This document shows positions 1-62,382 of a stretch of 64,000 nucleotides of DNA, piece by piece (the first letter of the stretch is position 1; each line of letters starts with the position of its first letter). The position numbers were made by a program, and so were the translations under genes. The DNA is from Lachnospiraceae bacterium (GTDB taxonomy: Bacteria > Bacillota > Clostridia > Lachnospirales > Lachnospiraceae), in NCBI GenBank assembly GCA_021199655.1, contig JAJQHQ010000019.1, forward strand, positions 12,511 to 76,510. The letters are read 5' to 3'. The notes under the pieces are model-generated. The model made no database searches, was not told the DNA's origin, and saw only the letters and a list, made by a program, of their open reading frames with translations.

Positions 1-126
1 GCGGAAGACCTTCCGGTAACGGTAATCCTTCACAGCATGAGCAGCTATCTGTTTGACGATACAAATTATGAAGGGCTTGTATATTCCTGCGGCAACTTCG
101 TGTTTACGTATGTGACAGCACTGTAA
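1..126 (+). CDS. 3' end of an unidentified upstream gene (partial at window edge)
   Basis: Frame 1 is open from base 1 (AEDLPVTVILHS...FVFTYVTAL) and ends at TAA 124-126. No family recognised. Confidence 0.3.
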   Translation, partial: AEDLPVTVILHSMSSYLFDDTNYEGLVYSCGNFVFTYVTAL

Positions 127-141
127 GTAAATGGAATGATA

Positions 142-168
142 GTAACTGTGAAGGTACTGAACAGTTAC
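142..168 (+). repeat. GTAAC-hairpin (REP-like) repeat, archetype copy GTAACTGT-GAAGGTACTGA-ACAGTTAC
   Basis: 8-bp perfect inverted termini around an 11-nt loop. The exact reverse complement recurs at 3565-3591, and near copies occur at more than 8 other sites. Confidence 0.85.
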
Positions 169-189
169 GAATGCTAAGGGAACAGGCAC

Positions 190-403
190 GGCAGCTTCGG
201 ACGCCGTAAGCTGCCCTTACCCGATAAGCCCCCGCGCCGTGAGATGGTACGGGGGCTTATCCTTGTGATGGGATGCGTCAACCGGGACCAGACATCCAGC
301 CTCGGCATCCACCGCAGACACGTTGATTTTTGCGGTTTTCCTGCGCCGCTTATTATCCCTTGCTTCGCTGGAACTCGCTTCGCTCAGACAATGGCGAAGC
401 AAG
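190..403. repeat. Mosaic of GC-rich hairpin modules in an ORF-free spacer
   Basis: Perfect stems GGCAGCTT/AAGCTGCC (190-215), GATAAGCCCCCG/CGGGGGCTTATC (223-261) and CTTGCTTCGC/GCGAAGCAAG (359-403). CCGATAAGCCCC recurs at 14742-14753. Confidence 0.5.
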
Positions 404-517
404 GGAAGCTATGCTCGAAAACCTTGCAAAAATCTGCCTACCGTCTGCTTGCGGATGCCTGAGGCTATATTCTGTCTGACGCAGGTATGACTTGTATAGA
501 TTTCGAGGGAGACAAGG

Positions 518-1708
518 ATGAAGATTGAGAAAATTGAGTTAGGGTATGTCCACATTCCTCTGATCACGCCGTTTCGCACGGCGCTGCGGACAGTGGACGG
601 GATCAACGATCTGATCGTCAGGATCACGGCGGAGGACGGCAGCTTCGGCTTCGGGGAGGCGCCGCCTACGGCGGTGATCACCGGTGATACGAAGGAGTCT
701 ATTGAGGCGGCGATCCGCGGGTATATTGCGCCGTCGATCATCGGGATGGACCTTTTGGATCTGGATGAGGTCATGCGGAAAATGGAGAAATCTATTGCGA
801 AAAACACGTCGGCGAAAGCAGCGGTGGACATTGCTTTGTATGATCTCTACGCGAAACAGATGGGGATGCCGCTCTACCGGGTATTGTCCGGCGCGCAGGG
901 CAGCAGAATCAGAATGTCGGAACCGGACAAACCGGGCGGTGCGGCTGCCAGAATGGAATCAGGCGAACCGATCAGCGCGGCAGCTAAGGCAGAAGCTGAC
1001 GGCGCTCCAGAGCTGGAGACGGATATTACGATCAGCGTGGATGAGACGGAGAAAATGGTGCGTGACAGCCTGCGCGCGATTGCGGACGGCTTCCGTATTC
1101 TGAAGGTGAAGGTCGGCAAAGGCGGGAAAAAGGATGTCGAGCGGGTACGGGAGATACGGCGGGCGGTCGGACCGGAAATTGTACTCCGCATTGACGCGAA
1201 CCAGGGCTGGTCGGCCAAGGAAGCCATTTCCACGATTCGGGCCATGGAAGAGGAAGGATTGAAGATCGAGCTGGTAGAACAGCCGGTTTCCTGTCATGAT
1301 TTCCGCGGACTTCAGCGGGTGACGAAGGCGGTGGATACGCCGATCCTGGCGGATGAGAGTGTGTTTTCTTATGAGGATGCGGAGCGCATTATCGAGGAAC
1401 ACGCGGCGGATTATATCAATATCAAGCTGATGAAGACCGGCGGCATTCACCAGGCAATGCGCATCTGTGATCTGGCGGATCGATATCAGGTGAACTGCAT
1501 GATCGGATGTATGCTGGAGAGTAAGGTTTCCGTGAGTGCCGGTGCGCATCTGGCTGCCGCGAGAAGCTGTATTACTATGGCTGATCTGGACGGTCCGTCT
1601 CTGTGTGCCGGGGATCCGTATGAGGGCGGTCCGGTCTACAGCGGTCCGAAGATTTATCTGAATGAGGATGCCGGAATCGGAATCCGAACAGTGCCGGTGA
1701 ATCTGTGA
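518..1708 (+). CDS. L-Ala-D/L-Glu (dipeptide) epimerase, enolase superfamily MLE subgroup
   Basis: Motifs ILKVKVG (K-x-K), RIDANQGW, ELVEQP, LADES, NIKLMKTGG. RBS GAGGGAGA lies upstream of the ATG. Context is other murein-peptide enzymes. Confidence 0.85.
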   Translation: MKIEKIELGYVHIPLITPFRTALRTVDGINDLIVRITAEDGSFGFGEAPPTAVITGDTKESIEAAIRGYIAPSIIGMDLLDLDEVMRKMEKSIAKNTSAKAAVDIALYDLYAKQMGMPLYRVLSGAQGSRIRMSEPDKPGGAAARMESGEPISAAAKAEADGAPELETDITISVDETEKMVRDSLRAIADGFRILKVKVGKGGKKDVERVREIRRAVGPEIVLRIDANQGWSAKEAISTIRAMEEEGLKIELVEQPVSCHDFRGLQRVTKAVDTPILADESVFSYEDAERIIEEHAADYINIKLMKTGGIHQAMRICDLADRYQVNCMIGCMLESKVSVSAGAHLAAARSCITMADLDGPSLCAGDPYEGGPVYSGPKIYLNEDAGIGIRTVPVNL

Positions 1709-1747
1709 TTCAATGAAAACAGCGCATGATAATTGCAGAAAAGAGAT

Positions 1748-3568
1748 ATGCTTATGCAAATCAGATATGGGATTGTGACAGCACAGAACTGTTTTTTACG
1801 CGGAAATAACAACGGGATAGAAGATGAGATTTTTTCCGGCTGGGCGGTTCGGGTTTTCCCGGAGACGGAGGAGAATGGCCGGGTAAAAATTGAGACCCAT
1901 TATGGATACGAAGGATATGTGTACAAAGACCAGCTTGCCCTGATCAGCCGGGAAACGCTTGCTGACAGGCAGGATCACACCCGCTTTTTCCGTATAGGAG
2001 TCCCTGCTGCGGATGTGCTGGATCAGCCGAAGGTGCAGGGACTGCTTCTGGAGCGTCTGCTGAAAAATTCAATCGTGGAGCGGGTGACCGAAGCCTCTGA
2101 CATGGACGGCTGGTGTCTCGTGCGCACTGCCGCCGGGGGTGTCGGCTATATGCATGAGAATTATCTGCGTATGCGTCAGGATGACGACGGATATTTGCTG
2201 GAGACGGAAAATCAGACAGAACCGGAATTGCTGCAGAAGAAGACGCGGACAGAGCCGGAAACCATGTCAGCCGGAAACAATTTACCGGAGAGCCAGATGG
2301 AAAATGGCAGGATCGGATACTTTGAAAAACGATTTCAGGAGAATCCTCCGGAAGAGGAAAGTTTTCGTGACGGCGTTGTGCGAAGCGCCCGCTCTTATCT
2401 GGGGGTACAGTACCGCTGGGGAGGAAAATCTTCTCTGGGGCTGGATTGCTCCGGCCTGGCATTTATGAGTTATCTGGAAAACGGCGTTCTGATTTATCGC
2501 GATGCGAAGATAAAGCCCGGATATCCGATTTTTGAAATACCGCGGGAAAAGCTGAAACCGGGGGATCTGATTTTCTTCCCGGGACATGTGGCAATCTATC
2601 TGGGAGAAGGGCGCTACATTCATTCTACCGGATACAAAAAGACTCCGTATGTTACCATCAACAGTCTGAACCCTGCGGATGAGGATTATCGGGCGGATCT
2701 GGCAGCTTCAATCACAGCCTGCGGGAGCATATTTTCAGCGTTAGAGCCTTCGCTTTGCCCGGAGGCAGAAAGGTTTGTTCATGAACCCGATGAAAAATTC
2801 GAAGCCCTGCGCAGGCGTCTGGATGCGATGCCCGGCAATCTCAGTGCGGTATATAAAGATCTGACGACCGGAGAGGTGTTTTTGTATCGGGAAGAAGAAC
2901 CGCATATTGCCGCGAGCGTGATCAAGCTGTTTTTGATGGCGGCTGTTTTTCAGGGATTTGCGGAGGGTGCTTTTTCTCCGGAGGAGCGGATTCTGATCCG
3001 GCGTGAGGACTGTGTGCCGTCCTGCGGGGTGCTGACATACCTGCAGGGAGAGTGTACGGTCAGCGTCCGTGATCTGACGGAGCTGATGATTATTGTCAGT
3101 GACAACACTGCTGCAAATGTCCTGTTTGATCTGGTCGGGGAGGAACGTCTTGCGGAGTTTTTGTCTGATAAGCTCGGCCTGAAAAAGACGGTGTTCCGCA
3201 GAAAAATGTTTGATGCCGGACGGGCCGCACAGGGAATCGAGAATTATGTGACAGCGGCGGACGCGGCCTGGCTGCTGGAGCGGATCTATAAAGGGGAACT
3301 GGTTTCCCGGGAGGCATCAAAAGAAATGTATCAGATCCTGACGCACCAGCGGCTGAACGGTAAAATTCCGTTTTATCTGCATACCTTCGCCAATGCACCG
3401 GTGATCGCGCATAAGACCGGTGAGGACAGCGGCGTCACGCATGACGTGGCCATAGTGGAAGGCGAGAGGCCGTTTGTGCTTTGCTTTCTTGGGAACGAAA
3501 CAAATGTGGCGGACTATGAACGGCTGATGGCGGAGACGGCACGGGATCTATATCTGAAAAGCTGGTAA
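1748..3568 (+). CDS. SH3b-like + NlpC/P60 gamma-D-Glu-diamino-acid endopeptidase fused to a class-A beta-lactamase-like serine hydrolase domain
   Basis: NlpC/P60 core GLDCSGL...PGDLIFFPGHVAIYLG...IHS. The C-terminal half has S-x-x-K (ASVIK), SDN (VSDNTA) and KTG (HKTGED). Start is uncertain (TTG 1733, ATG 1748 or 1754). Confidence 0.8.
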   Translation: MLMQIRYGIVTAQNCFLRGNNNGIEDEIFSGWAVRVFPETEENGRVKIETHYGYEGYVYKDQLALISRETLADRQDHTRFFRIGVPAADVLDQPKVQGLLLERLLKNSIVERVTEASDMDGWCLVRTAAGGVGYMHENYLRMRQDDDGYLLETENQTEPELLQKKTRTEPETMSAGNNLPESQMENGRIGYFEKRFQENPPEEESFRDGVVRSARSYLGVQYRWGGKSSLGLDCSGLAFMSYLENGVLIYRDAKIKPGYPIFEIPREKLKPGDLIFFPGHVAIYLGEGRYIHSTGYKKTPYVTINSLNPADEDYRADLAASITACGSIFSALEPSLCPEAERFVHEPDEKFEALRRRLDAMPGNLSAVYKDLTTGEVFLYREEEPHIAASVIKLFLMAAVFQGFAEGAFSPEERILIRREDCVPSCGVLTYLQGECTVSVRDLTELMIIVSDNTAANVLFDLVGEERLAEFLSDKLGLKKTVFRRKMFDAGRAAQGIENYVTAADAAWLLERIYKGELVSREASKEMYQILTHQRLNGKIPFYLHTFANAPVIAHKTGEDSGVTHDVAIVEGERPFVLCFLGNETNVADYERLMAETARDLYLKSW

Positions 3569-3591
3569 CTGTTCAGTACCTTCACAGTTAC
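3565..3591 (-). repeat. GTAAC-hairpin repeat, exact inverted copy
   Basis: GTAACTGTTCAGTACCTTCACAGTTAC is the exact reverse complement of 142-168. Its TAA (3566-3568) is the stop codon of the upstream ORF. Confidence 0.9.
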
Positions 3592-3711
3592 AAAAGCTGC
3601 ACATAAGATCGTCAGGGATTTGATGTGATATCCGGGAACTCTGATACATAACGATCCGGAACAGCAGGCCGCAGGCCTGCGCATCATAAAAGATACGGAG
3701 AATCATTCGAT

Positions 3712-5130
3712 ATGAAAGAATTTTCTCATGAGGAACTGAATGCGCTGGCATACGAATTGCCGGACGAGGTAGAGAAATACAAACAGCAGGGAGACTTTGA
3801 CGCGGCGGAAGAAGCAATTGAGCGCTGGCTGCAGCGTCCGGTGGCGGAGGCGCTGAAAGTGCGGCTGCGGCTGGAAAAGAAAATCTTAAAAGGGCTTCGT
3901 GAAGATTTTCCTTATACGAAGGAGCAGGCGATTGCGCTTGTCAGGGAGCAGGCTCCCGGTTTTGATGAAGCAGATCTGGCGCGGCTGGACGAGGCGGGAC
4001 TCGCGGAATGGATTTTTCTGGACGGAGAGAAGCATTACATTCATAATCTCCTGCGGAATATCACGCGGATGGATCCGGAGATCAGGAGCAGAATGCATAA
4101 GGAGGATCCGGATGAGGAGGAAAGAGAACTGCTCAGAGAGGAGATTCATCGGATAAAAAAAGAAAAGCACATAAGCGGTCGCTTCCGGCTGCGGGCCTCC
4201 ATATCTCTCAGGGAGGATTTGTTTTATCCGGGAATCAGGCTGAAAGCGCATCTCCCGCTTCCAGCCGAACTGCACCAGACTTCGGACGTGAAGCTTCTGG
4301 CGCATTCCGACTGCAGGGTATCCATAGACCGGCCGGATTCCCTGTACCGGGCGATCTGTTTTGAAGATACACTCCAACAGAACCGGGATTTTTTTGCGGA
4401 GTATGAATATACAGTGACTGCGGATTACCATGGTTTTTCCCGGGAAGATTATGAAGATGCGGTGAAAAGAAAAACGCTATGGCAGGCAGGCCTTTGGGAG
4501 TCCGGACAGTACAACACTCCGGAAGAATTGGCGCCTTATCTTAAAGAACAGTACCCGCACATCCGGTTTTCTCCTTATTTGCGCGCATTGGCGGCGGAGA
4601 TTACGGCGAATGCCGGCAATGCACTTTCAAAAGCTTATGCCGTTTATGAGTACATAACGACGCAGGTGAAATATTCCTATATGAGAGAATACTTCCTGAT
4701 GCCGGACATTCCGCAGTATTGTGCGAGAAACCTGCGCGGAGACTGCGGAGTACAGGCGCTGCTGTTCATCACCCTCTGCAGGATCTGTGGCATACCGGCC
4801 AAATGGCAGTCCGGTCTGTATTTTGGCGGCAGAGAAAATGTCGGCGCGCATGACTGGGCATTGTTTTACGCGGAGCCATACGGATGGCTGTACGCGGATC
4901 CTTCCCTGGGAGGAAACGCTTTCCGCGCCGGAGAGGAGGAACTTCATCGTTTTTACTTTGGTAATCTGGATCCGTTCCGCATGGCGGCAAACAATGCGTT
5001 CGCGCAGCCGCTTGCGAATCCGAAACGTTTTCTTCCCGCGGATCCGTATGACAACCAGACCGGAGAACTGGAGTCGGATGTGCGCGGATACGGCAGCCGG
5101 GAGACGGTGAGGGAAGTGAAGAGAATATGA
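3712..5130 (+). CDS. Transglutaminase-like cysteine protease family protein
   Basis: Cys-His-Asp core: RGDCGVQALLFITLCRICGIPAKW, GAHDWALFY, LYADPS. Confidence 0.75.
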   Translation: MKEFSHEELNALAYELPDEVEKYKQQGDFDAAEEAIERWLQRPVAEALKVRLRLEKKILKGLREDFPYTKEQAIALVREQAPGFDEADLARLDEAGLAEWIFLDGEKHYIHNLLRNITRMDPEIRSRMHKEDPDEEERELLREEIHRIKKEKHISGRFRLRASISLREDLFYPGIRLKAHLPLPAELHQTSDVKLLAHSDCRVSIDRPDSLYRAICFEDTLQQNRDFFAEYEYTVTADYHGFSREDYEDAVKRKTLWQAGLWESGQYNTPEELAPYLKEQYPHIRFSPYLRALAAEITANAGNALSKAYAVYEYITTQVKYSYMREYFLMPDIPQYCARNLRGDCGVQALLFITLCRICGIPAKWQSGLYFGGRENVGAHDWALFYAEPYGWLYADPSLGGNAFRAGEEELHRFYFGNLDPFRMAANNAFAQPLANPKRFLPADPYDNQTGELESDVRGYGSRETVREVKRI

Positions 5131-5142
5131 GGTCATTTGATC

Positions 5143-6096
5143 ATGCAGGAAACAGCACTTAGAATGCCGGAAAGAATCCGGCCGGGAGACACGATCGGCG
5201 TGGTTGCGCCTGGATCTCCGATCAGTCCGGAAGAAGGGAAAGCCTTGACGGCTTATCTGGAAAAAGCGGGATACCGGGTACGGCCTGGGAAAACCATAGA
5301 AGACCGGATGAATTTTCACGGTTATCTCGCCGGAGACGCACATTCCAGAGCTGAAGATATCAATGCCATGTTTGCGGATCCGGCCGTGAAAGGGATTCTC
5401 TGTGCCAGAGGCGGATATGGAAGTAGCCACACTATGCAATTTTTGGATTTGGAGATGATTCGCCGCAATCCGAAAGTATTCATTGGCTACAGCGACAACA
5501 CGAACTACCATTCTGTGTTGAATAAATACTGCGATCTGATCACGTTTCACGGGCCGATGGCGGTCAGCAATATGCTTAAGGGCTTTGATGCGTACAGCCG
5601 CGGCAGCCTCCGGCAGGCACTCGGCATGAGTATGACGGATTTTTATGAATTTAAAAATCCGCCGGAAGATCCTATGAATACGTTGCATCCGGGAAAGGCA
5701 AAAGGACTTGTCACCGGAGGGAACATCAGCCTTCTGGCGCATTCCGTGGGGACGTTTTACCAGCCGGATACGGAAGGAAAAATTCTGTTTATAGAGGACG
5801 AGGAGGAAAGCATTCCGCGGCTGGACATGATGATCACGCAGATGGAACAGGCGGGAATGACAAAAGGCATCCGTGCCCTGTTGATCGGAAATTTTAAAGA
5901 CTGCTCCAATGATCATTACGACAGGAATTATCGGATCGAAGATTTCCTGCGTGACCGCTTTGCGGACTACAAAGTCCCTGTGGTCACGAATCTGTGCAGC
6001 GGACATAAACGCCCCATGGGAACCATACCGATGGGCGCTGTCTGCAGCGTCGACGCATCGGAGGAGGATGTCAAAGTTCTGTTTGGGTTGGGGTAA
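5143..6096 (+). CDS. ldcA: LD-carboxypeptidase (muramoyltetrapeptide carboxypeptidase, peptidase S66)
   Basis: GDTIGVVAPGSP, GYSDNT (nucleophile Ser) and C-terminal GHKRPMGTIPMG. GAGG lies 10 nt before ATG 5143; the track ORF starts at TTG 5137. Confidence 0.85.
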   Translation: MQETALRMPERIRPGDTIGVVAPGSPISPEEGKALTAYLEKAGYRVRPGKTIEDRMNFHGYLAGDAHSRAEDINAMFADPAVKGILCARGGYGSSHTMQFLDLEMIRRNPKVFIGYSDNTNYHSVLNKYCDLITFHGPMAVSNMLKGFDAYSRGSLRQALGMSMTDFYEFKNPPEDPMNTLHPGKAKGLVTGGNISLLAHSVGTFYQPDTEGKILFIEDEEESIPRLDMMITQMEQAGMTKGIRALLIGNFKDCSNDHYDRNYRIEDFLRDRFADYKVPVVTNLCSGHKRPMGTIPMGAVCSVDASEEDVKVLFGLG

Positions 6097-8491: not shown

Positions 8492-9358
8492 ATGAAATTT
8501 ACCAAAATGCATGGTCTGGGGAATGACTATATCTATGTGAATTGCTTTAAAGAACAGGTTACGAATCCATCCGAAACCGCAATCCGCGTGAGCGACCGTC
8601 ACTTCGGCATTGGTTCGGACGGCCTGATTCTGATCAAGCCTTCAGACAAGGCCGATTTTCAGATGGAAATGTACAACGCGGACGGCTCACTGGGAGCGAT
8701 GTGCGGCAACGGCATCCGCTGCGTGGCAAAATACGTCTACGATTATGGCCTGACCGACAAGACACAGATTACTGTGGAGACGAAAAGCGGCATCAAATAT
8801 CTGGACTTGACGGTCGCGGATGGAAAAGTCACTTTGGTCCGCGTGGACATGGGAGCGCCGATTCTGGTGCCGGAGCAGATTCCGGTGGATATTGGGAAAT
8901 TCGGCCGGAAACAGGCTGACAGATGTGCTGCCGATGCTCCAATCATTGGAGAAGCGGTTTCTGTTGGAGCGGATATTTTTTCCATCACCTGTGTCTCCAT
9001 GGGAAACCCGCACTGCATCGTGCCTGTTGAGGATGTGGATGGGCTGGAGATTGAAAAAATCGGTCCGCGATTTGAGAACCATCCGATGTTTCCGGATCGG
9101 GTCAACACGGAATTTGTGAGAGTCCTTGATCACGACACAGTGCAGATGCGTGTCTGGGAGCGCGGTTCCGGCGAGACGCTCGCCTGCGGTACAGGTGCCT
9201 GCGCGGTTGCTGTGGCAAGTGCCTTAAACGGATGGACCGGAAACAAAGTGACGGTGAAGCTGCGCGGCGGCGATCTGCAGATCGAGTGGGACCGCGGAAA
9301 AAATACGGTATTTATGACAGGACCGGCTGCGACTGTGTTTGAGGGAGAAATTAATTGA
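8492..9358 (+). CDS. dapF: Diaminopimelate epimerase
   Basis: [16 protein letters not shown], both catalytic-Cys contexts ([18 protein letters not shown]), typical length. Confidence 0.95.
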
Positions 9359-9421
9359 TAAACAACCCGGTTTGAACCAGAAGTAAAGTGGATATATAAA
9401 TATATATTACATAATACAATC

Positions 9422-9448
9422 TTAACTGTGAAAGCACTGAACAGTTAC
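9422..9448 (+). repeat. GTAAC-hairpin repeat copy
   Basis: TTAACTGTGAAAGCACTGAACAGTTAC, ending 9 nt before the dapL Shine-Dalgarno. Confidence 0.8.
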
Positions 9449-9468
9449 GAACAACCAAGGAGGCCATT

Positions 9469-10683: not shown

Positions 10684-10826
10684 GTGACTATTCAGGACAG
10701 TACTTCGCACTTGCTGCGAAGTACGTATGAAAACGTATATTATGTAGGGAAAAGCCCCATCGCGGCGCGGAGACGCGATTTTAAATGGGCTTTTCCCTCG
10801 TAACTGTGAAGGGACTGAACAGTTAC
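10684..10826 (+). mobile_element. Composite MITE-like repeat (143 bp) bounded by GTAAC-family termini
   Basis: Left end GTGACTATTCAGGACAG starts one base after the dapL TAA. The right end is hairpin copy 10800-10826. Internal perfect stems are 10700-10724 and 10747-10758/10787-10798. Confidence 0.6.
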
Positions 10827-10843
10827 GAATGTAAGGAGCTCAG

Positions 10844-12583: not shown

Positions 12584-12620
12584 AATCACAATCGGACAGA
12601 AAGGATAGCAAAGAAATGGT

Positions 12621-13484: not shown

Positions 13485-13502
13485 AAAAAGGATAAAATGT
13501 CG

Positions 13503-13544
13503 AGCGCCTGTTCGGGACAGTTCCTCGCACTTGCTGCGAGGAAC
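13503..13544 (+). repeat. Partial copy of the 10684-10724 repeat arm with a compensated hairpin
   Basis: CCTGTTCGGGACAG + GTTCCTCGCA-CTTGC-TGCGAGGAAC, compared with CTATTCAGGACAG + GTACTTCGCA-CTTGC-TGCGAAGTAC at 10688-10724. Confidence 0.7.
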
Positions 13545-13577
13545 GAAACAGAATGCAAGAAAAAGGAGCAACAGAGT

Positions 13578-14498
13578 ATGAAAAAACCGGTACTGGTAGT
13601 GATGGCGGCGGGTATGGGCAGTCGCTACGGAGGATTGAAACAGATTGACCCGGTCGATCCGGAAGGGCATATTATCATGGACTTTTCTGTCTATGACGCC
13701 GTCCGCGCCGGATTTGAAAAGGTGATTTTCATTATCAAACGGGAAAATGAAGCGGATTTTCGCGCAGCCATTGGCGACCGCCTCGCCGGGCACATAGAAG
13801 TGGAATACGTTTATCAGGAGCTGACAAACCTTCCGGAAGGGTTTTCCGTGCCGGAGGGCCGTGTGAAACCGTGGGGGACCGGACATGCTGTCTTAAGCTG
13901 TCAGGGAACTGCGGACGGTCCGATGGTCGTTATCAACGCGGATGATTTCTATGGAAGAAACGCGTTTGCGCTGGCGTATGATTTTCTCACACGGAAAGAG
14001 GAAGCCGCAGGCCGCTACATGATGGTCGGCTATCGTCTGGAAAACACACTGACGGAGAACGGATCTGTGGCGCGCGGCGTTTGCAGTACAGATGAGAATG
14101 GTTATCTGAAAACGATCACAGAGCGCACCAGCATTGAACGGCATGGCGACCGGATCGCATACACAGAGGACGGCGGCGCAAGCTGGAATGAGCTTCCCCC
14201 GGATACTACCGTTTCTCTGAATATGTGGGGCTTTTCCGGGGATATTCTTACAGAACTGAACGAGCGCTTCCGGGCATTCCTCGCGGAGAATCTGCCGAAA
14301 AACCCGCTGAAATGCGAGTATTTCCTGCCCTTTGTCGTGGATGAACTGCTGACAGAAGGAAAGGCGACGGTGAAAGTCGAGAAAACTCCGGATAAATGGT
14401 ACGGGGTGACATATAAAGAAGACAAGCCGGCACTGATGGCGGCAATTCAGAAGATGAAGGATGAAGGGGTTTACCCACAGAAGCTGTGGGAAAAGTAA
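13578..14498 (+). CDS. Sugar-phosphate nucleotidyltransferase family protein (substrate unknown)
   Basis: N-terminal VVMAAGMGSRYGGLKQI signature and WGTGHAV. AAGGAG lies 9 nt before ATG 13578; the track ORF begins at 13497 inside a repeat. Confidence 0.7.
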   Translation: MKKPVLVVMAAGMGSRYGGLKQIDPVDPEGHIIMDFSVYDAVRAGFEKVIFIIKRENEADFRAAIGDRLAGHIEVEYVYQELTNLPEGFSVPEGRVKPWGTGHAVLSCQGTADGPMVVINADDFYGRNAFALAYDFLTRKEEAAGRYMMVGYRLENTLTENGSVARGVCSTDENGYLKTITERTSIERHGDRIAYTEDGGASWNELPPDTTVSLNMWGFSGDILTELNERFRAFLAENLPKNPLKCEYFLPFVVDELLTEGKATVKVEKTPDKWYGVTYKEDKPALMAAIQKMKDEGVYPQKLWEK

Positions 14499-14665
14499 CA
14501 TTAGTTCAGAACAGCAGACCACAGGTCTCCGCTCCGCTCCGGTCGGTGCTTAACGTGTGCCACTGGCACGCAGCACCCGCCCATCCCAAGAAGAAAAGAC
14601 AGCCTTTAGCAGACAAGTCTGCACAGGCTGTCTTTTCTTCTTGCTGCTGTTCTGAACTGTTTCAC
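14495..14665 (+). mobile_element. Composite MITE-like repeat (171 bp) with inverted termini
   Basis: Termini are GTAACATTAGTTCAGAACAGCAG (14495-14517) and CTGCTGTTCTGAACTGTTTCAC (14644-14665). It carries module 1 (14525-14548) and a 19-bp perfect stem (14587-14605/14625-14643). Its TAA is the stop of the upstream gene. Confidence 0.7.
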
Positions 14666-14796
14666 AATTTTACTTATTCTTTACATAAGAGGGATTATGC
14701 ATTTTACATAGCGTGACTAAAATGATTATCGTAACGGGGCACCGATAAGCCCCGGAATTCGATCAGAAAACGATTAGAAAAAGGAGATCATTTATT

Positions 14797-15684: not shown

Positions 15685-15686
15685 CT

Positions 15687-16541: not shown

Positions 16542-16573
16542 AAAGAAATCGTTCCGATTTGGATGCGGCCTTC

Positions 16574-17467: not shown

Positions 17468-17482
17468 GATGCGTTTTTCCGC

Positions 17483-17509
17483 GTGATTGTAAAGGTACTG
17501 AACAGTTAC
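17483..17509 (+). repeat. GTAAC-hairpin repeat copy (left arm degenerate)
   Basis: GTGATTGTAAAGGTACTGAACAGTTAC, in the pstA-pstB spacer. Confidence 0.7.
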
Positions 17510-36950: not shown

Positions 36951-37100
36951 AACCTTTTCCTACAAATCGCAGGAAAACAGAAAAAATATCAACAGTTTTG
37001 TGGATGGAGAACCAGATAAAGATATGGTAAATTTATGGCATGGACAAATTGCACAGAGACAAAGAACTGACCGTTCGGCAACCTGTGCAGAATGAACGAA

Positions 37101-37211
37101 ACAGTAATTGCGAAGGTGCTGAACAGATTGTACGAAGCGACAGCTGCGAAGGTACTGAACATACTGAACAGATTGTACGAAGCGGCAGCTGTGAAGACAC
37201 CGGGCAGTTAT
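37101..37211 (+). repeat. Tandem array of three degenerate GTAAC-hairpin units
   Basis: Units are 37101-37139, 37140-37184 and 37185-37211, each containing GCGAAGGTRCTGAACAG-like cores. The array ends 5 nt before the SD of the next gene. Confidence 0.7.
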
Positions 37212-39213: not shown

Positions 39214-40245
39214 ATGCACGATAGTGTATCATCTGCTATGCCTTGTTTTATGAACAAAATCACCTGTTTGTGTAACAAGAAACGGAAGCTGAAAACCCAG
39301 ATGAATGTGTCAAACGATGAAGATCAGGAATACACAACAGAAGGCAGAAATAATAATGCAAAGGCGAAACGTACGCGGCTGGATGATGCAGCTTTACGTG
39401 ACGCTATTGACATCCTGGATTCTATAAAATTCGCACTGACAGATGTCCTGCTGAATGCGGATTCGTTTGCGGGAGCCTGTAAAAAAAGGGGTTTGTATCA
39501 TATAAATATAAAAAAATTGTTGATTTCAAAAGCGTTTTCAGCCTGCCGGACAGAAGGGCCGCCTTTGCGGCTGGAAGAAACTGTTGTCCTGGAACCGGAT
39601 GGGTTTGAACAGCTTTATCTGGATGTTTTCGGGATGGATGCGATATGCGATGCAGAGCTTCCATTGGACTTCCGTCAGACGGTTTTTGATGTGATCGGGC
39701 AATTAAACGAGCAGGAGCAGAAGGTCCTCCGTTTACGATACGGGTTTTGCGACAAATACGGCATTCCGTTAACATTGGAAAAAACAGGATGTGAACTTGG
39801 CATTACAGCCCCTCGGGTTAAGGTAATTCAGAATAATGCTCTTTGCAAATTGCAGCACCCGCCTTTAAAAACCTGGCTGATGGAAGGATCCATTCAATAT
39901 CAGGCCAGACAGAAAGTTCTTCAGTCGGATCTGGATACATACAAAGCTACTGTTTACTCCTGGTTGAATAGTCATATTGCAAAAACAGACCGAGCCGGGC
40001 GGCAGGAAAACGATATAAAAAGCGACATAAAAGCCGAAGACATTTATTCACTGGGGATTGATGCCATGGGTTTTTCAAATCGAACCGGCAACTGTCTGAA
40101 ACGTGCCGGGAAAAACACGTTTCGTGACGTTCTTGAGCTTACGGAAGAGGATATGTCTAAAATACGCGGACTGGGGTGGAAATGCCGGGAGGAAATCAAT
40201 CGGAAACGCATGGAATGGCTGACGAAGCAAGATGATAATATTTAA
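39214..40245 (+). CDS. Protein combining a sigma-70 region-4-like HTH with an RNAP alpha-CTD-like helix-hairpin-helix domain
   Basis: EQEQKVLRLRYGF...LTLEKTGCELGITAPRVKVIQNNALCKLQHP fits the sigma region 4 pattern. GFSNRTGNCLKRAGKNTFRDVLELTEEDMSKIRGLGWKCREEI fits the alpha-CTD pattern. Start codon uncertain. Confidence 0.55.
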   Translation: MHDSVSSAMPCFMNKITCLCNKKRKLKTQMNVSNDEDQEYTTEGRNNNAKAKRTRLDDAALRDAIDILDSIKFALTDVLLNADSFAGACKKRGLYHINIKKLLISKAFSACRTEGPPLRLEETVVLEPDGFEQLYLDVFGMDAICDAELPLDFRQTVFDVIGQLNEQEQKVLRLRYGFCDKYGIPLTLEKTGCELGITAPRVKVIQNNALCKLQHPPLKTWLMEGSIQYQARQKVLQSDLDTYKATVYSWLNSHIAKTDRAGRQENDIKSDIKAEDIYSLGIDAMGFSNRTGNCLKRAGKNTFRDVLELTEEDMSKIRGLGWKCREEINRKRMEWLTKQDDNI

Positions 40246-40261
40246 GGTACTGAAGAGTTAC
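40244..40261 (+). repeat. Partial GTAAC-hairpin repeat (right half)
   Basis: AAGGTACTGAAGAGTTAC, overlapping the TAA stop (40243-40245) of the upstream gene. Confidence 0.6.
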
Positions 40262-45500: not shown

Positions 45501-46432
45501 GACGCCATCAGACGATCGATCAGGAAGGCACACAGCTTGTCTGCGGGTTACTGGCAGGAACTGTTTTTGTTATTCTGATGCTGCTTTTGTATAATGGCAA
45601 TGCGGAATGTCCCCGATATACGGCGATCCTGAATTCGGTATATTGCATTCTGATTCCGATTGTGGTATCATTTCTCGGGCATCAGGCAGCAACTGCCGGC
45701 CATGCGGTGGAAGCGCCCCCTCCCTTACGGTCGGCGGCAGGTTGCGCCGTCAATGAGAGAAACGCTGCGCGTTTGGACGGCGCTGCAGTATCTGCGGGAA
45801 AGCAGACTCCTCTGCCGGCAGCTGTGATGGGGGTTCTGGCCGTCCTGCTGCTGATACAGACGTACTGGACGATCGATCCGGTCATCCTGGTGCATGGTTC
45901 GGGAATTGATACCGGAAAGAAGACATTGTATCGTCTGGCTCTTGATCAGGATTCCCGTTCAGGGATGAATCTGGGAGCTGATTATAGTGAATATACAGCT
46001 GTAGGGGATATTTATGCTTATAATATTGAGTACAGCTATTATAACAGCCTGATCCGGGAAGCAATGACGGAGATTGAGCCTGATAAAGAGGATCAGTTTT
46101 ACATTCTGGATCTGATCACATATGAGATGCATCTTAGCGGGGAGCAGTATCCCATTTACTGGAACTCCCGATTAGGAAAAATGACCTATGACGGCGAGGA
46201 TGAGGACAGTATATTACTTTCACAGGAAAGTATAAAAACGGAAGATCTCTGTGCGGCAGATATCGGCTCATTGGAATTAGAAGAGGAATTTTATCTGGTA
46301 GTTGCGGCGCGCGTGGATGAGCAGGCCGCGGTGGACCGCATTCTGGAAGAAGGATATGAAGCAGCGGAAGTACTCGAATATGAGAATCTATACGGGGCGA
46401 TGAGTGTATACCGCTTTGTTAAACAGTCCTGA
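42596..46432 (+). CDS. 1278-aa surface/membrane protein: signal peptide, two GLUG-like modules, GT-C-like polytopic domain, C-terminal soluble domain
   Basis: Modules are at about 42715-43215 and 43520-44010 (PYLIQS...QTxDxxL...WxPIG...YDGxGH...GLFGQL...NCxN...GGIADxF), followed by more than 10 TM helices. Confidence 0.6.
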   Translation: MKAGHLKNNTHTKTAFLIFCIVLFTVSMSIMKVRAEDTEFPFSGDGSKDSPYLIQSVEELCEFRDLVNEGEEFQDCYFYQTGNLDLGGMDWVPIGIYGSGHYFYGVYDGGGHYLENLTIVEPIDPGENESSSKPGLFGQLAGIVLNLGIESGEIEGTYCGSIASHAVSGASPYIINCYNKADVKGRRAGGIADNFSGGTIINCWYSANIESLSGTASGPASYDGILIDCFGITDDYADSFLGTIIAARGTGSESDQSGDSRIFDAGLFYLPEEIDIDMLIPWEWDEDENELVFSENTSAQVSVNAETAFEGEGTEAEPYLIQSWSDLCMFRYLVNTGNEFSGIYFQQTADIAIESDDWIPVGICGSGNYFYGIYDGAGHAITGLRTKYHMDSEQDSKGLFGQLGGVVANLRLEAVDMEGAYCGAIAAMAAGKGEERTAAILNCFVSGSITGYRVGGIADYFSEATIANCISDVTITLYEDAGDWEDNTGGILSSSLDTKVYGCRTTAAQVMPDAYTSATSGVITAEDLQDKGFVLRQNIRTALTQELFANRFGVRLMQWELTEEGILQFGEGQLYLLLFDWMNLYLLPVLLLVFIISILILMKKTGIKRFEDRYHQQISAVLIISAILSVFVDCAAFGTAKGSLCFGNLCFVIQIHVVFAASLLLFTGYVRTHGRRNIRIGRGNRTGLITLSAVMLLTLILELRQFGITPLYDASLYYGSLVRGVKLFRLDLFSYIGAFVCWKWAQGSALLIAPLEFLLPGQMTGVYVSNIIITEITIVVMYRLLKESISDCSPVLAALSGAILIFCPYQLGMFTYLNFDTYLSCYVIWLLYSYRRKNNLMIAFCGYLLCFTKITGGIFYVLFLVAASVYEALRRYTGSWLRRMAGWWSWPRCIIWMVPGFLYLGAYLFGDWLTIQHFEGAYVISAMASAKTLVSAGNTLVQAFVFGFRWLFLLIIIAAGILWLICPPGRHQTIDQEGTQLVCGLLAGTVFVILMLLLYNGNAECPRYTAILNSVYCILIPIVVSFLGHQAATAGHAVEAPPPLRSAAGCAVNERNAARLDGAAVSAGKQTPLPAAVMGVLAVLLLIQTYWTIDPVILVHGSGIDTGKKTLYRLALDQDSRSGMNLGADYSEYTAVGDIYAYNIEYSYYNSLIREAMTEIEPDKEDQFYILDLITYEMHLSGEQYPIYWNSRLGKMTYDGEDEDSILLSQESIKTEDLCAADIGSLELEEEFYLVVAARVDEQAAVDRILEEGYEAAEVLEYENLYGAMSVYRFVKQS
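45712..45790 (+). repeat. GC-rich repeat modules read in frame in the 1278-aa ORF
   Basis: Degenerate module 1 at 45716-45737 (..CTTACGGTCGGCGG). Module 2 ATGAGAGAAACGCTGCGCGTTTGGACGGC at 45753-45781. Confidence 0.75.
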
Positions 46433-46468
46433 ACAGCAGCAAAAGAAACAGAAAGGAACAGACCTATC

Positions 46469-47824
46469 ATGAACCACTGGGAAAATGAGACAGAGGCACG
46501 GGAAGAAATTAAAAGCCTGGTAACGGAATATTACCATCAGTTCAAAGAAAAGAAAAACGATTTTCACGAGGGAGACCGCATCTCCTATGCCTCAAGAGTG
46601 TATGACGAAAAAGAAATGTGCGCGCTGACGGACGCGACGCTGGACTTCTGGCTGACGACGGGCCGCTTTGCGGATCAGTTTGAAAAAGATTTTGCGAAGT
46701 GGATCGGTGTGCGGTATGCGCATCTGGTCAACAGCGGTTCCTCTGCGAATCTGATCGCGTTTATGGCGCTGACGGCGCCGGAGCTTGGGGAGCGGCAGAT
46801 CCGGCGGGGAGATGAGATCATTACCGTCGCCTGTGGGTTTCCCACCACTGTGACGCCGATCCTGAACTACGGCGCGGTGCCGGTCTTTGTGGATGTGACC
46901 GTTCCGCAGTACAACATTGACGTCACAAAACTGGAGGCTGCTCTCTCAGAAAAGACGAAAGCCGTCATGATCGCGCATACGCTCGGCAATCCGTTTGATC
47001 TTCAGCAGGTAAAGGCATTCTGCGATGCGCATGATCTCTGGCTGGTGGAGGACAACTGCGACGCACTCGGCACACAGTATACGATCAACGGTGAGACGAA
47101 ATACACCGGCACCTGGGGCGATATCGGGACCAGCAGCTTCTATCCGCCGCACCATATGACGATGGGGGAAGGCGGATGCGTCTATACGGATAATCCTCTG
47201 CTTCATAAGCTGATCCTATCCTACCGCGACTGGGGACGCGACTGTATCTGCCCATCCGGAAGAGACAATTTCTGCGGGCACCGGTTCGATGGGCAGCACG
47301 GGGAGCTTCCGCAGGGCTATGATCATAAATATGTCTACAGTCATTTTGGATATAATTTAAAGGTGACCGATCTGCAGGCGGCGATTGGCTGCGAGCAGCT
47401 GAAGAAATTCCCGTCCTTTATCGAGCGCCGCCGGCACAACTGGGACAGGCTGTATGCGGCTCTGGAAGGCGCGCAGGATAAGCTGATCCTGCCCGAGCCG
47501 GCGGATCACAGCCGCCCGTCATGGTTTGGTTTTCTGATCAGTGTGAGGGAAGAGAGCGGTCTGGATCGCAACAAAGTGACCCGGTATATCGAAGAGCACA
47601 ATGTACAGACGAGACTTTTGTTTTCCGGGAACCTGATCAAACATCCCTGTTTCGATCAGATTCGAGGCACGGACGCGTATCGTGTGGCGGGAAGTCTGGA
47701 TGCGACGGAATTTATCATGAACAACACGTTCTGGGTGGGCGTCTACCCGGGGATGACAGATGAAATGATCGACTATATGGCAAAGGTGATACTTGAGGCG
47801 ACAGATTGCCGGAGAAACAGGTAA
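46469..47824 (+). CDS. rfbH: CDP-4-keto-6-deoxy-D-glucose 3-dehydrase (E1, RfbH/DdhC type)
   Basis: DegT-fold with SSFYPPHHMTMGEGG (His where aminotransferases have the Schiff-base Lys) and a C-x-C-x7-C cluster (DCICPSGRDNFC). Confidence 0.85.
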   Translation: MNHWENETEAREEIKSLVTEYYHQFKEKKNDFHEGDRISYASRVYDEKEMCALTDATLDFWLTTGRFADQFEKDFAKWIGVRYAHLVNSGSSANLIAFMALTAPELGERQIRRGDEIITVACGFPTTVTPILNYGAVPVFVDVTVPQYNIDVTKLEAALSEKTKAVMIAHTLGNPFDLQQVKAFCDAHDLWLVEDNCDALGTQYTINGETKYTGTWGDIGTSSFYPPHHMTMGEGGCVYTDNPLLHKLILSYRDWGRDCICPSGRDNFCGHRFDGQHGELPQGYDHKYVYSHFGYNLKVTDLQAAIGCEQLKKFPSFIERRRHNWDRLYAALEGAQDKLILPEPADHSRPSWFGFLISVREESGLDRNKVTRYIEEHNVQTRLLFSGNLIKHPCFDQIRGTDAYRVAGSLDATEFIMNNTFWVGVYPGMTDEMIDYMAKVILEATDCRRNR

Positions 47825-47858
47825 CTGTGATGGTACGGAACAGTATTGAAACAGTTAC
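47821..47858 (+). repeat. GTAAC-hairpin repeat copy with expanded loop
   Basis: GTAACTGTGATGGTACGGAACAGTATTGAAACAGTTAC. Its TAA (47822-47824) is the rfbH stop. Confidence 0.75.
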
Positions 47859-50697: not shown

Positions 50698-51637
50698 AGA
50701 GAAGAAAAAGATATCTGTGATGATCCCCTGCTATAATGAGGAAGAAAATGTGGTTCCCATCAGCGAAGCGGTCGTAGATATTTTAAATAAAGAACTGCCG
50801 GAATATGATTATGAAATCCTGTTTATCGACAACTGCTCTACGGATAAGACCAGAGATCTGCTTCGGGCTATCTGCAGTCAGAACAAAAAGATCAGGGCAA
50901 TCCTGAACGCCAGAAATTTTGGACAGTTTAATTCCCCCTACTATGGACTTTGCCAGACGACGGGAGACTGTACGATCTCTCTGTGCTGTGATTTTCAGGA
51001 TCCGGTGGAACTGATCCCGGTGTTTGTTCATGAATGGGAAAAAGGCTATAAGATCGTCAGCGGGATTAAGACGTCCAGCAAGGAAAATCGTTTTATTTAT
51101 TTTTTGAGAACCGTATATTATAAGCTGATCAAAAATATGTCGTCCGTGGATATGATCGAGCACTTCACCGGTTTTGGACTGTATGATAAAGACTTTATCC
51201 AGCTGCTTCGCGATCTGGAGGATCCGATTCCGTTTATCCGTGGGGTGGTTGCGGAATTTGGCTATAAACGAAAGGAAATCGAATACGAGCAGCCGAAACG
51301 GAGAGCGGGGAAAACACACAACAATTTTTATTCCCTGTATGATGCCGCCATGTTGAGCTTCACTTCTTACACGAAGGTCGGACTGCGGCTGGCAAGCTTT
51401 GTGGGATATATCTGTGCGTTTTTCAGTTTTGTAGTCGGAATCGTATATTTTGTTCAGAAGCTTCTGCACTGGAACGACTTTTCAGCCGGCATGGCGCCGC
51501 TGGTCATAGGACTGTTTTTCCTGTCCGGCATTGAGCTGATCTTTATCGGATTTCTGGGAGAATATGTCATGAATATCAACCAGAGAGTGATGAACAGGCC
51601 TCTGGTGATAGAAGAAGAGAGAATCAATTTTGAGTAA
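50690..51637 (+). CDS. GT2 polyprenyl-phosphate glycosyltransferase (GtrB/ArnC-like) with two C-terminal TM helices
   Basis: ISVMIPCYNEEENV, FIDNCSTDKT, CDFQDP. The C-terminal TM pair is typical of GtrB. Confidence 0.8.
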   Translation: MSKEKKKISVMIPCYNEEENVVPISEAVVDILNKELPEYDYEILFIDNCSTDKTRDLLRAICSQNKKIRAILNARNFGQFNSPYYGLCQTTGDCTISLCCDFQDPVELIPVFVHEWEKGYKIVSGIKTSSKENRFIYFLRTVYYKLIKNMSSVDMIEHFTGFGLYDKDFIQLLRDLEDPIPFIRGVVAEFGYKRKEIEYEQPKRRAGKTHNNFYSLYDAAMLSFTSYTKVGLRLASFVGYICAFFSFVVGIVYFVQKLLHWNDFSAGMAPLVIGLFFLSGIELIFIGFLGEYVMNINQRVMNRPLVIEEERINFE

Positions 51638-51809
51638 CAGTTCAGAACAGCATCGAAATGAAAAGACAGACCGTGCAGGTTTACCTGCAAAAGGCTGTAT
51701 TTTCATTTCGGGATGGGCGGAACGCCCATCAAGCCTCAGACATATGACGCGCAGGCGGCATATAGCCTTCGAAGAAGGCGGTCTGTGGCCTGCTGTTCTG
51801 AACAGTTAC
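51634..51809 (+). mobile_element. Composite MITE-like repeat (176 bp) with near-perfect inverted termini
   Basis: GTAACAGTTCAGAACAGCA (51634-51652) / TGCTGTTCTGAACAGTTAC (51791-51809), 18/19 complementary. The interior shares GAAAAGACAG with 14495-14665. Its TAA is the stop of the GT2 gene. Confidence 0.7.
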
Positions 51810-54629: not shown

Positions 54630-54656
54630 GTAATTGTTCAGTACCTTCACAGCTAC
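54630..54656 (-). repeat. GTAAC-hairpin repeat, inverted copy
   Basis: GTAATTGTTCAGTACCTTCACAGCTAC, 25/27 identical to 3565-3591. Confidence 0.8.
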
Positions 54657-60443: not shown

Positions 60444-62015
60444 ATGTCTTATATTTCATTTGGGTTTTATGTGTTTTTTCTCTTTTTTGTATTATACAGT
60501 CTGCTGGTCCCAGCCAGGCACAGGTGGAAAGTGTTTCTGACATTCAGCATTGTTTTCTATGCATACGCGGGGATCGGAAAGCTTTTGATGGTGATCTTAT
60601 CTTCCCTTTTTGTATATCTTTTTGCACGGCTGATGGGCAGGCAATATGAAAAATACGAACAGGAGATCAGAGAAAAAGAACTTCCTTCACGTGAACGGAT
60701 GGCCCTGCTGTCAGAATATAAAAAGAAAACAAAACGTCTGGTGGTCATTGCCCTCGCAGGTATGATCGGAGTGCTGGTGTTATGCAAAACATATTCTAAA
60801 ATACTGGGTTTATGGGAAGCCGTGACCGGCGATGAACTGCTGCTGACCATAATCGTTCCTCTCGGAATTTCCTATTATACGTTTTCGTCAGTGGGTTATC
60901 TTCTGGATGTCTACTGGAGGAAAACAAAACCGGAAAAAAACTACGGAAAACTTCTTCTTTGCATGATTTATTTTCCGCAGATCGTGGAAGGCCCAATCTC
61001 ACGGTATGATAAACTGCTGCCTCAGTTCGAAAATCCAAAGAAGATTTCGTGGCAGCGTCTTTGCAACGGCCTGCAGTTCATGATCTGGGGATATTTCAAA
61101 AAGATGGTGATCGCGGACAGACTGTCTGTGGTCGTGACGACTGTGCTGGGAGATCCGGGATCTTATGAGGGCTTTGTGATCTTAATTGCGATGATATTCA
61201 GCGCGTTTCACATCTATGCGGATTTCTCAGGCTGCATGGATATCGTGACAGGTGCCTCCTATATCGTGGGTGTGGATCTGGATCCTAACTTTAACCACCC
61301 GTTTTTCAGCCGCAGCGTGGCGGAATTCTGGAGAAGATGGCATATTACGCTTGGAACATGGTTTAAAGATTATGTGTATATGCCGATTGCGACGTCGCCG
61401 ACCATGATGAAGATCAGCAAAAAATTAAAAAAAGGATTTGGTATAAAGGCCGCCAAAAATTTTTCGTTTGTGATTCCGACAGCTGTCGTCTGGCTTTTGA
61501 CGGGACTGTGGCATAATGCCAGTTTTAACTACTTGTTATGGGGGATTTATTATGGTACACTGATCACAGGCTCTCAGCTTCTGACGCCATGGTTTGCAAA
61601 GATGGCAAAGCTTTTCCATATAAAAACGGAAGGAGCCTCCTGGCATGTATTTCAAATGGTCCGCACATTCTGTGTGTTTATGGTGGGAAGACTGATCACC
61701 GTGCCTGGAACCTTACAGGGGACCTGGATTGCCATCCGACAGCTCTTTTCGGCATGTAACGTATGGGTATTCTTTGATGAAACGTTTTATTCTCTGGGCC
61801 TTGGACGGACGGAATTCCATATTGCGCTGGCCGGAGCACTGCTGCTGCTCCTTGTCGATGCTCTGCAGGAAAAATGCTGTCTCAGAGAGAAGATTGCCGA
61901 CCGGAATATCGTACTGCGCTGGACGATATACTTTGCCGCGTTTTTTCTGGTTTTGATTCTGGGTATGTATGGGAGCGAATATTCAACCGGTTCTTTTATC
62001 TATGCGGGCTTTTGA
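60444..62015 (+). CDS. MBOAT-family membrane O-acyltransferase (DltB/AlgI-like)
   Basis: FWRRWHITLGTWFKDYVYMPI (catalytic His) and a polytopic profile. Start taken at ATG 60444, after GGAGG/AAGGA. Confidence 0.85.
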   Translation: MSYISFGFYVFFLFFVLYSLLVPARHRWKVFLTFSIVFYAYAGIGKLLMVILSSLFVYLFARLMGRQYEKYEQEIREKELPSRERMALLSEYKKKTKRLVVIALAGMIGVLVLCKTYSKILGLWEAVTGDELLLTIIVPLGISYYTFSSVGYLLDVYWRKTKPEKNYGKLLLCMIYFPQIVEGPISRYDKLLPQFENPKKISWQRLCNGLQFMIWGYFKKMVIADRLSVVVTTVLGDPGSYEGFVILIAMIFSAFHIYADFSGCMDIVTGASYIVGVDLDPNFNHPFFSRSVAEFWRRWHITLGTWFKDYVYMPIATSPTMMKISKKLKKGFGIKAAKNFSFVIPTAVVWLLTGLWHNASFNYLLWGIYYGTLITGSQLLTPWFAKMAKLFHIKTEGASWHVFQMVRTFCVFMVGRLITVPGTLQGTWIAIRQLFSACNVWVFFDETFYSLGLGRTEFHIALAGALLLLLVDALQEKCCLREKIADRNIVLRWTIYFAAFFLVLILGMYGSEYSTGSFIYAGF

Positions 62016-62104
62016 CCGCAGCGAATACAAGGGACTGTTTTGAATAGTTACCTGCAGCTTACAGCTGCATGATCATACAATAAAAGTGAAAGGACTTAAG
62101 AAGA

Positions 62105-62329: not shown

Positions 62330-62382
62330 GTAACTGCTCGGGAGGGCATCTCGTGACGTAAAAGTACGGAACAGTTGCGTAC
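62330..62382 (+). repeat. Degenerate, expanded GTAAC-hairpin repeat
   Basis: GTAACTGC...GTAAAAGTACGGAACAGTTGCGTAC, ending at the SD of the next gene. Confidence 0.55.

Follow-up and report, generated by a model that had tools for sequence, protein, structure and literature searches.

Why does one short palindrome recur in the narrow spacers of this locus, and why does it so often look as if it were itself the spacer between two genes? The window, by which we mean the whole stretch of DNA analysed (64 kb), holds about 15 elements or remnants of one repeat family according to a profile search, with element sizes ranging from 27 to 176 nt. The repeat could be a mobile element, a hairpin kept by the host for its effect on mRNA, or a binding site for a regulator, and these possibilities lead to different expectations for its ends, its flanks and its distribution.

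Copies of the repeat in the window

An exact copy of the 27-mer GTAACTGTGAAGGTACTGAACAGTTAC lies at 142-168 (+) and one of its reverse complement at 3565-3591 (-), while copies with one to three mismatches are found at 9422-9448, 10800-10826 and 17483-17509 (+) and at 54630-54656 (-). These six matches compare with 0.00 expected from 100 dinucleotide-preserving shuffles. An earlier note on this DNA had described the 27-nt unit, the exact pair and these four near copies, and all of them were found again. As free-standing units, however, 10800-10826 and 17483-17509 do not stand, being actually the right ends of larger elements at 10684-10826 and 17468-17509. The neighbouring genes proposed in that note were also confirmed (DAP epimerase, class I/II aminotransferase, MutS domain V, pterin-binding, ThDP enzyme and GtrA).

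The solo 27-bp unit at 142..168 (+) is an exact match to the consensus and is flanked by an 8-bp duplication agreeing at 7/8 positions (GAATGATA at 134-141 and GAATGCTA at 169-176). The exact inverted unit at 3565..3591 (-) has AAAAGCTG on both sides, at 3557-3564 and 3592-3599, and its terminal GTAAC contains the stop codon of ORF 1733-3568 (TAA, 3566-3568). The unit at 9422..9448 (+; three mismatches, nhmmer E 3.9e-5) has decayed flanks (5/8) and ends 8 nt 5' of the AAGGAGG of an aminotransferase (dapL-like) gene. The flanks of the inverted unit at 54630..54656 (-; two mismatches, E 1.9e-5) agree at 6/8, reading GAATTCGA / GGATCCGA in the orientation of the element.

A full-length 143-nt MITE occupies 10684..10826 (+; nhmmer full-length match, E 6.4e-33). 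It runs from the left end GTGACTATTCAG through two internal hairpins to the 27-mer at its right end (10800-10826), was aligned with 33 copies from other genomes, and has an RNA fold of -61.2 kcal/mol (z -6.6). Its 8-bp duplication GAATGTAA is perfect (8/8): the copy at 10676-10683 holds the stop TAA of the dapL-like gene, and the copy at 10827-10834 begins the Shine-Dalgarno sequence TAAGGAG of the MutS-like gene. At 17468..17509 (+), directly 3' of the stop of ORF 16619-17467, lies a 5'-truncated long element (nhmmer profile positions 95-136, E 1.5e-7), whose right end is the 27-mer with three mismatches, two of which preserve G-U pairing. A left-end remnant with the first hairpin sits at 13508..13558 (+; profile positions 5-55, nhmmer E 1.3e-4), between ORF 12621-13484 and a probable ATG at 13578. 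At 47821..47858 (+; E 2.7e-3) the repeat takes the form of a 38-nt long-loop variant, which fits GTAACWGT-N-ACWGTTAC with both 8-nt arms intact around a longer interior (fold -12.9 kcal/mol); a DegT-type aminotransferase gene has its stop in the GTAAC of this variant (TAA, 47822-47824), and the ThDP-enzyme gene starts 25 nt downstream.

Two 176-nt elements, for which no strand is given, appear from their sequences to form a second subfamily. The one at 51634..51809 is bounded by terminal inverted repeats of 20 nt (GTAACAGTTCAGAACAGCA...CTGCTGTTCTGAACAGTTAC), and its 8-bp duplication, AATTTTGA (51626-51633 and 51810-51817), is perfect. The other, at 14497..14672, is an 81% inverted match to 51630-51720; its ends are related but decayed (GTAACATTAGTTCAGAACAGCAG...CTGCTGTTCTGAACTGTTTCAC) and it has a terminator-like hairpin inside. 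In both of them the stop of the upstream gene lies in GTAAC. A remnant resembling the extended terminal repeat of this subfamily, GTTAAACAGTCCTGAACAGCAGCA, was found at 46416..46455 (likewise without a strand) and is 80% complementary to 14628-14667.

The remaining copies are recovered weakly by the long-element profile (nhmmer). The cluster at 37100..37211 (+) consists of about 2.5 units of about 40 nt, each like the right-end hairpin, and ends 19 nt 5' of the pterin-binding methyltransferase gene (E 0.05-0.08 for 37104-37161). The half copy AAGGTACTGAAGAGTTAC at 40244..40261 (+) begins at the stop codon of ORF 39214-40245 (E 0.42), and the copy at 62330..62382 (+), GTAACTGC...GGAACAGTTGC, has a long interior and lies between a 73-aa ORF (62105-62326) and the GtrA-like gene (E 1.2 for 62350-62376). 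These three are real but decayed remnants and not clean copies. Thus the tandem array (37101-37211) and the half copy that had been reported previously are present in degenerate form, and of two further near copies reported, 47821-47858 holds by its pattern while 62330-62382 is weak and decayed. A left-end-like remnant, …TTTTGAATAGTTAC, lies at 62015..62051 (-), directly 3' of the stop of ORF 60417-62015 (a weak match to profile positions 1-37, E 0.16). This remnant and the elements at 13508-13558, 14497-14672, 46416-46455 and 51634-51809 are additions to the copies listed in the earlier note.

A longer element behind the 27-mer

The family was scanned for with the exact 22-nt right-end pattern, one genome per species, and at least 113 loci carry this motif. 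They belong to many Lachnospiraceae genera, with nearly all matches in Lachnospiraceae; the hosts among the matches listed include Blautia wexlerae, B. celeris, Clostridium fessum, Oliverpabstia, Fusicatenibacter, Dorea, Marvinbryantia, Murimonas and others. The earlier note had made enrichment beyond the window a test of its dispersed, mobile, palindromic repeat family, and the family, at these loci, far exceeds the window. Its description is upheld by the occurrence in many genomes together with the duplications and the presence/absence difference described below.

When the flanks of the 133 fetched copies were aligned, the 27-mer proved in about half of them to be the right end of an element of about 132-144 nt. 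The exact 27-mer is present in 73 of the 133, although its invariance outside the window is partly by construction, the sample having been picked by the 22-nt right-end pattern. The left end is a different matter: in the alignment of 34 non-redundant long copies the ends are sharp, and the left end GTAACTATTCAG is near-invariant although it lies outside the search pattern, while the interior averages about 69% identity. The left GTAACTATTCAG and the right CTGAACAGTTAC form 12-nt terminal inverted repeats matching at 11/12 positions. Within the right-end 27-mer the terminal ...CTGAACAGTTAC also pairs with the internal GTAACTGT, and the two hairpins in the interior of the canonical element show covariation from one subfamily to another.

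Many contigs stop 25-40 nt 5' of the 27-mer, which is a pattern typical of assembly breaks caused by repeats. Several contigs (L018, L047, L059, L063, L082, L101 and others) end within the element, and L001, a Logan contig equal to window positions 9267-10716, ends 33 nt into the MITE at 10684-10826. This 1.45-kb contig was the sole public contig found in an exact-protein look-up of the window aminotransferase, and the same look-up with ORF 54127-54597 found no contig. A search of a plasmid collection with the MITE gave no match, and in a phage collection only six contigs matched, all human-faecal and unannotated. Copies also occur on 'cleanbin' MAG contigs labelled Alistipes, Prevotella, Bacteroidaceae and Holdemanella (L009, L014, L019, L047, L055, L070, L080, L091, L103, L106 and L112); we suspect mis-binning, the alternative being that the family extends outside Lachnospiraceae. 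Our literature search did not find a description of the family, and a query with the terminal 12-mers returned only unrelated primers. As far as we could find, the family is therefore previously undescribed, while MITEs, the class to which it belongs, are a well-known sort of selfish DNA.

Target-site duplications and an empty site

The 8-bp flanks of the long copies are identical at 7/8 positions or better in 47 of 56 cases, and those of the copies labelled as solo in 22 of 56; among about 450 shifted controls none reached 7/8. About a quarter of the solo-labelled copies have no recognisable duplication; many of them, and most of the solo-labelled copies under 7/8, are long copies in which decay has affected the left end. 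The 69 distinct target sequences that were collected differ from one another in their 8-mers. They are AT-rich over about 25 nt, and the first duplicated base is G in 55% and the second A in 62% of the 69 targets.

A close relative provides one orthologous empty site for comparison. Contig L109, from the MAG Lachnospiraceae bacterium U.9_8, is colinear with window positions 1-5617 at about 94% identity. At the site of the 142 insertion it has a single GAATTGTA and no 27-mer, and the 3565 insertion is common to the window and L109. Several characteristics of MITEs are found here: terminal inverted repeats, duplications of fixed length but with a sequence specific to each site, small non-coding dispersed copies, and an orthologous site both filled and empty.

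The spacer of the 142 insertion differs from that of L109 in other ways as well. At 177-222 a further stretch of about 43 nt (GAACAGGCACGGCAGCTTCGGACGCCGTAAGCTGCCCTTACCC, a hairpin) adjoins the 142-168 insertion and is likewise missing from L109. A segment of about 240 nt at 261-500 is also missing from the orthologous spacer; it has a long inverted repeat of its own (CAGACATCCAGCCTCGGCATCC...GGATGCCTGAGGCTATATTCTGTCTG), replaces the T-run of a terminator hairpin (GATAAGCCCCCG...CGGGGGCTTAT) and may be another small mobile element.

Relationship to ISBst12-group insertion sequences

Ends starting with GTAA and a duplication of 8 bp are indicative of the IS66 family. One member of the ISBst12 group in this family, ISDge4, has GTGACTACTCAGCA / GTAACTGCTCAGCA as its terminal repeats, a direct repeat of 8 bp and one transposase of 449 aa (PMC12898284). 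An element on Geobacillus kaustophilus pHTA426, which encodes an 'IS66-like ISGka4 family transposase', begins with GTAACTATTCAG, ends with CTGAATAGATAC and is flanked on both sides by the duplication AACTCGTC; its left 12-mer is identical to that of the MITE. Relatives in Clostridium estertheticum and Bacillus thuringiensis have similar ends, and at 12 IMG/VR and 16 assembly loci, gut metagenomes included, elements of 1.6-1.9 kb run from GTAACTATTCAG to CTGAA(C/T)AGTTAC between perfect 8-bp duplications. In the IS element of L132 both 12-mers are identical to those of the MITE, and an autonomous ISBst12-type copy with the same ends is present in Anaerostipes sp. 494a, which belongs to a Lachnospiraceae genus. 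The transposases of the autonomous IS elements carry PF03050 (DDE_Tnp_IS66).

The window family therefore shares with the ISBst12-group elements (ISBst12, ISDge4 and the pHTA426 element) ends of the form GTAACT(A/G)(T/C)TCAG and the 8-bp duplication. It differs from them in that the insertion sequences are 1.6-1.9 kb long with one DDE_Tnp_IS66 transposase of about 420-495 aa, whereas the window elements are non-coding and 27-176 nt long. In the IS copies examined only the terminal 12 nt are shared, and nothing corresponds to the interior of the MITE or to its 27-nt right-end hairpin. Searches with the Geobacillus transposase (tblastn and phmmer) found no ISBst12-type transposase in the window or in about 800 kb flanking MITE-bearing loci, and the fetched loci contained no pair of left and right ends 0.3-6 kb apart with a duplication. 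At the family level, ISBst12/IS66 as the source of the ends is well supported by these sequence comparisons. We infer mobilisation in trans by an ISBst12-type transposase, and it is very probable that the 27-mer units and the long elements alike are non-coding MITEs moved in this way by ISBst12-group (IS66-family) DDE transposases.

Similar elements are known from other bacteria. Chunjie of Geobacter uraniireducens, Correia/NEMIS of Neisseria and RUP of S. pneumoniae are also non-coding and intergenic with terminal inverted and direct repeats, and in common with the present family they are co-transcribed, have stable RNA folds and occur in size variants and truncated copies. Chunjie has even been reported within an operon without disturbing it (PMC3184786, PMC10969869). 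The Lachnospiraceae family differs from all three in host group, sequence and parent family (IS66/ISBst12), and from Chunjie also in its dimensions, with 12-nt ends and 8-bp duplications against inverted repeats of 21 bp and direct repeats of 9 bp. Its commonest form, at 27 bp, lies under the range of 50-800 bp quoted for prokaryotic MITEs (PMC11602168). In Coxiella burnetii most copies of QMITE2 are shortened and have come to resemble REPs (PMC10969869); the truncated QMITE2 copies lose the inverted and direct repeats, whereas the 27-bp form here retains both ends and the duplication.

The earlier note had offered REP/RAYT-type mobile DNA (IS200/IS605) as a candidate role. In such a system a domesticated HUH/Y1 (IS200/IS605-like) transposase would recognise the hairpin of a short palindrome and thereby disperse it. 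The 27-mer is indeed a short, imperfect, intergenic palindrome with many copies in both orientations, and it resembles the REP/BIME sequences of E. coli and Pseudomonas, which are palindromes of about 20-40 nt in operon spacers, in both orientations and in hundreds of copies; the side-effects on mRNA may be similar too. However, HUH/Y1 (RAYT) transposition produces no target-site duplication, and REPs, which are tied to HUH/Y1 RAYT genes, accordingly lack one, while both solo and long copies here are surrounded by 8-bp duplications, the 27-mer forms one end of a longer element bounded by terminal inverted repeats, and these ends agree with those of DDE-type ISBst12 elements. A search for a RAYT gene, which had been proposed as a check, gave nothing RAYT-like in about 860 kb around the copies: with E. 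coli RayT as a distant query, the best phmmer hit among all ORFs of 70 aa or longer from the window and the 113 loci, from genomes that are incomplete, had E 0.46. The duplications and the ISBst12/IS66-type ends contradict this role, which we regard as highly improbable. Even less can be said for a palindromic operator with which a dimeric regulator would co-regulate the downstream genes, an explanation we find hardly credible. An inverted repeat of 8-bp arms around a conserved 11-bp spacer has a CIRCE-like geometry and several copies lie just 5' of start codons, yet the neighbouring genes are functionally unrelated, copies occur after stops, within operons and in all intergenic contexts, and target-site duplications with polymorphism between close relatives are properties of mobile DNA and not of a regulon.

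Some other identities were considered and set aside. A right end of an IS200/IS605 or TnpB element (omega-RNA) was dropped because the conserved upstream part is only about 116 nt long, with an inverted end and duplications. The sequences of an integron attC, a CIRCE-like operator and a LexA box do not fit, and the mobile behaviour speaks against them.

Position between genes and the possible role of the hairpin

In the window every copy lies between co-directional genes, as had been noted previously, and this is because all window genes run one way; in other genomes the rule fails, as elements are found between convergent and divergent genes too. They are almost never within genes. At 3565, 47821, 51634 and 14497 the TAA of the terminal GTAAC is the stop of the upstream gene. 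In the 54 co-directional contexts from other genomes the element supplies the stop in 8 and lies at most 15 nt after the stop in 24, about a third of the elements are within 30 nt of the next start codon, and sense orientation outnumbers antisense by 37:17.

The sequences suggest how such positions could arise. Insertion is into AT-rich DNA and duplicates 8 bp, and in a host genome of about 50% G+C the AT-rich targets would be found chiefly at gene ends. The duplicated 8 bp could then restore a stop codon and, across the element, a Shine-Dalgarno site, and the terminal GTAAC would offer a TAA stop in one reading frame, whichever end or orientation is considered. Within operons, insertions would be expected to persist only if they were harmless in this way. 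At 10684-10826 the ancestral junction was probably an overlap of stop and Shine-Dalgarno sequence, with both signals restored by the duplication. The element thus seems to be the spacer because the duplication regenerates stop and Shine-Dalgarno site and GTAAC supplies a TAA stop, and it lies close to the Shine-Dalgarno sequence because it inserts into AT-rich junctions of this kind. AT-rich target choice and purifying selection together account for the positions of the elements, which we infer to be near-neutral.

Alternatively the hairpin could have been selected by the host to protect mRNA ends, to guide processing or to tune downstream translation, with the transposon origin being secondary to exaptation. 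There are observations in its favour: the sense strand of the 27-mer folds at -9.0 kcal/mol (z -3.0) compared with -6.9 for the antisense, the sense excess and the many copies within 30 nt of the next start codon would fit a function in the transcript, and the internal hairpins of the long element have 8 base pairs with compensatory double changes between subfamilies. In six copies outside the pattern selection, the stem of the 27-mer has a compensatory change in one, a change on the loop side that spares the 8 bp of the stem in another, and stem-breaking changes in the other four. Copies in both orientations and between convergent or divergent genes also speak against this reading, the proximity to stop and Shine-Dalgarno signals is explained by AT-rich targets and duplication, and an orientation bias can follow from an asymmetric target (G and A as first bases) on purine-rich sense strands. 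As the earlier note stated, no T-run follows the hairpin, which the flanking sequence and a terminator scan bear out: the 27-mer stem is AT-rich and lacks a T-run, so the signature of an intrinsic terminator is absent, and the scan called no + strand terminator at the elements in 9300-17700. Rfam 15 matched no copy of the repeat in the whole window at the gathering threshold, and in a search of 9380-10860 with E up to 10 the only overlap was GA-cis (E=4) at 10745-10825. Taken together, selection of the hairpin by the host is an improbable reason for the existence of the family. We treat the co-transcribed hairpin (about -9 kcal/mol) of these MITEs as a by-product, with RNA effects as possible side-effects, though selection acting on the RNA could lie behind the 37:17 bias and the covariation of the internal hairpins.

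Origin of the solo 27-mers

A solo 27-mer consists of two 8-bp ends around 11 nt and retains the 8-bp duplication, and free-standing 27-mers are the smallest derivatives of the long element. GTAACT occurs both at the left end of the long element and at the start of the right-end hairpin, and a deletion between these two repeats would reduce the element to precisely the 27-mer, with the original duplications on either side. Further deletion derivatives of 37, 41, 47 and 69 nt, each with duplications, were found. Repeated microhomology-driven deletion in place, between the GTAACT of the left end and that of the hairpin, is a full alternative to the possibility that the short forms move by themselves.

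That very short elements move is suggested by a 41-mer with a unique internal junction, which is identical to the letter at no fewer than six sites with differing 8-bp duplications; in favour of mobile short forms, too, the 27-mer is far commoner than every other deletion derivative. If so, the 27-bp and 41-bp units would be transposition-competent 'nano-MITEs' moved by an ISBst12-type transposase, a substrate with two ends of 8-12 bp and only 7-17 bp between them being excised or copied and then re-inserted. We hold this reading tentatively and consider it somewhat doubtful, since the synapsis of ends 27 bp apart is sterically hard and since two strains 98.9% identical to each other differ at one of these sites, where the first has a 41-mer and the second a remnant of the long form. 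At this site, with the target GAAAAATG, L073:885-1051 has the 41-nt derivative with both duplications, while L158:2751-2934 has the right 104 nt of a long element of a different subfamily, which a deletion between GCATGAA repeats has fused to the upstream gene. Neither of the simple models, pure deletion or direct transposition, explains the site. Nano-MITEs, if real, would be smaller than any other mobile DNA unit described in bacteria, and their size would set limits on how transposases of the IS66 family pair their ends. The class of element is otherwise well known, and the biological surprise is modest unless the 27-bp form itself is mobile.

Significance and other repeats in the window

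It seems that these elements are widespread in Lachnospiraceae, and the matches from the phage and plasmid collections are all unannotated. They break short-read assemblies, the stop codons they supply can shift predicted gene ends, and they can be mistaken for regulatory hairpins or REPs. If they are MITEs that depend on ISBst12 elements, their presence/absence differences could serve as a marker for strain typing, and they would offer a natural minimal substrate for studying the poorly understood transposition of IS66/ISBst12 elements.

Other repeats occur in the same window. A GA-cis RNA (Rfam RF02987) match at 45705-45788 (-) lies above the gathering score (45.6 vs 34.7 bits) and is one of a four-copy G+C-rich repeat family, with the others at 13301-13346, 26394-26439 and 28805-28850. 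All four copies are inside long + strand ORFs with odd low-complexity translations. A repeat neighbouring this family is found at 13233-13263, 14525-14555 and 26302-26332, the copy at 14525-14555 being inside the 14497-14672 element. Finally, a family of 57-nt direct repeats at 42832-42888, 43633-43689, 53924-53980 and 58242-58298 lies in ORFs 42596-46432, 51885-54242 and 58015-60420, and looks like a protein repeat shared by cell-surface/polysaccharide-locus proteins rather than a DNA element.
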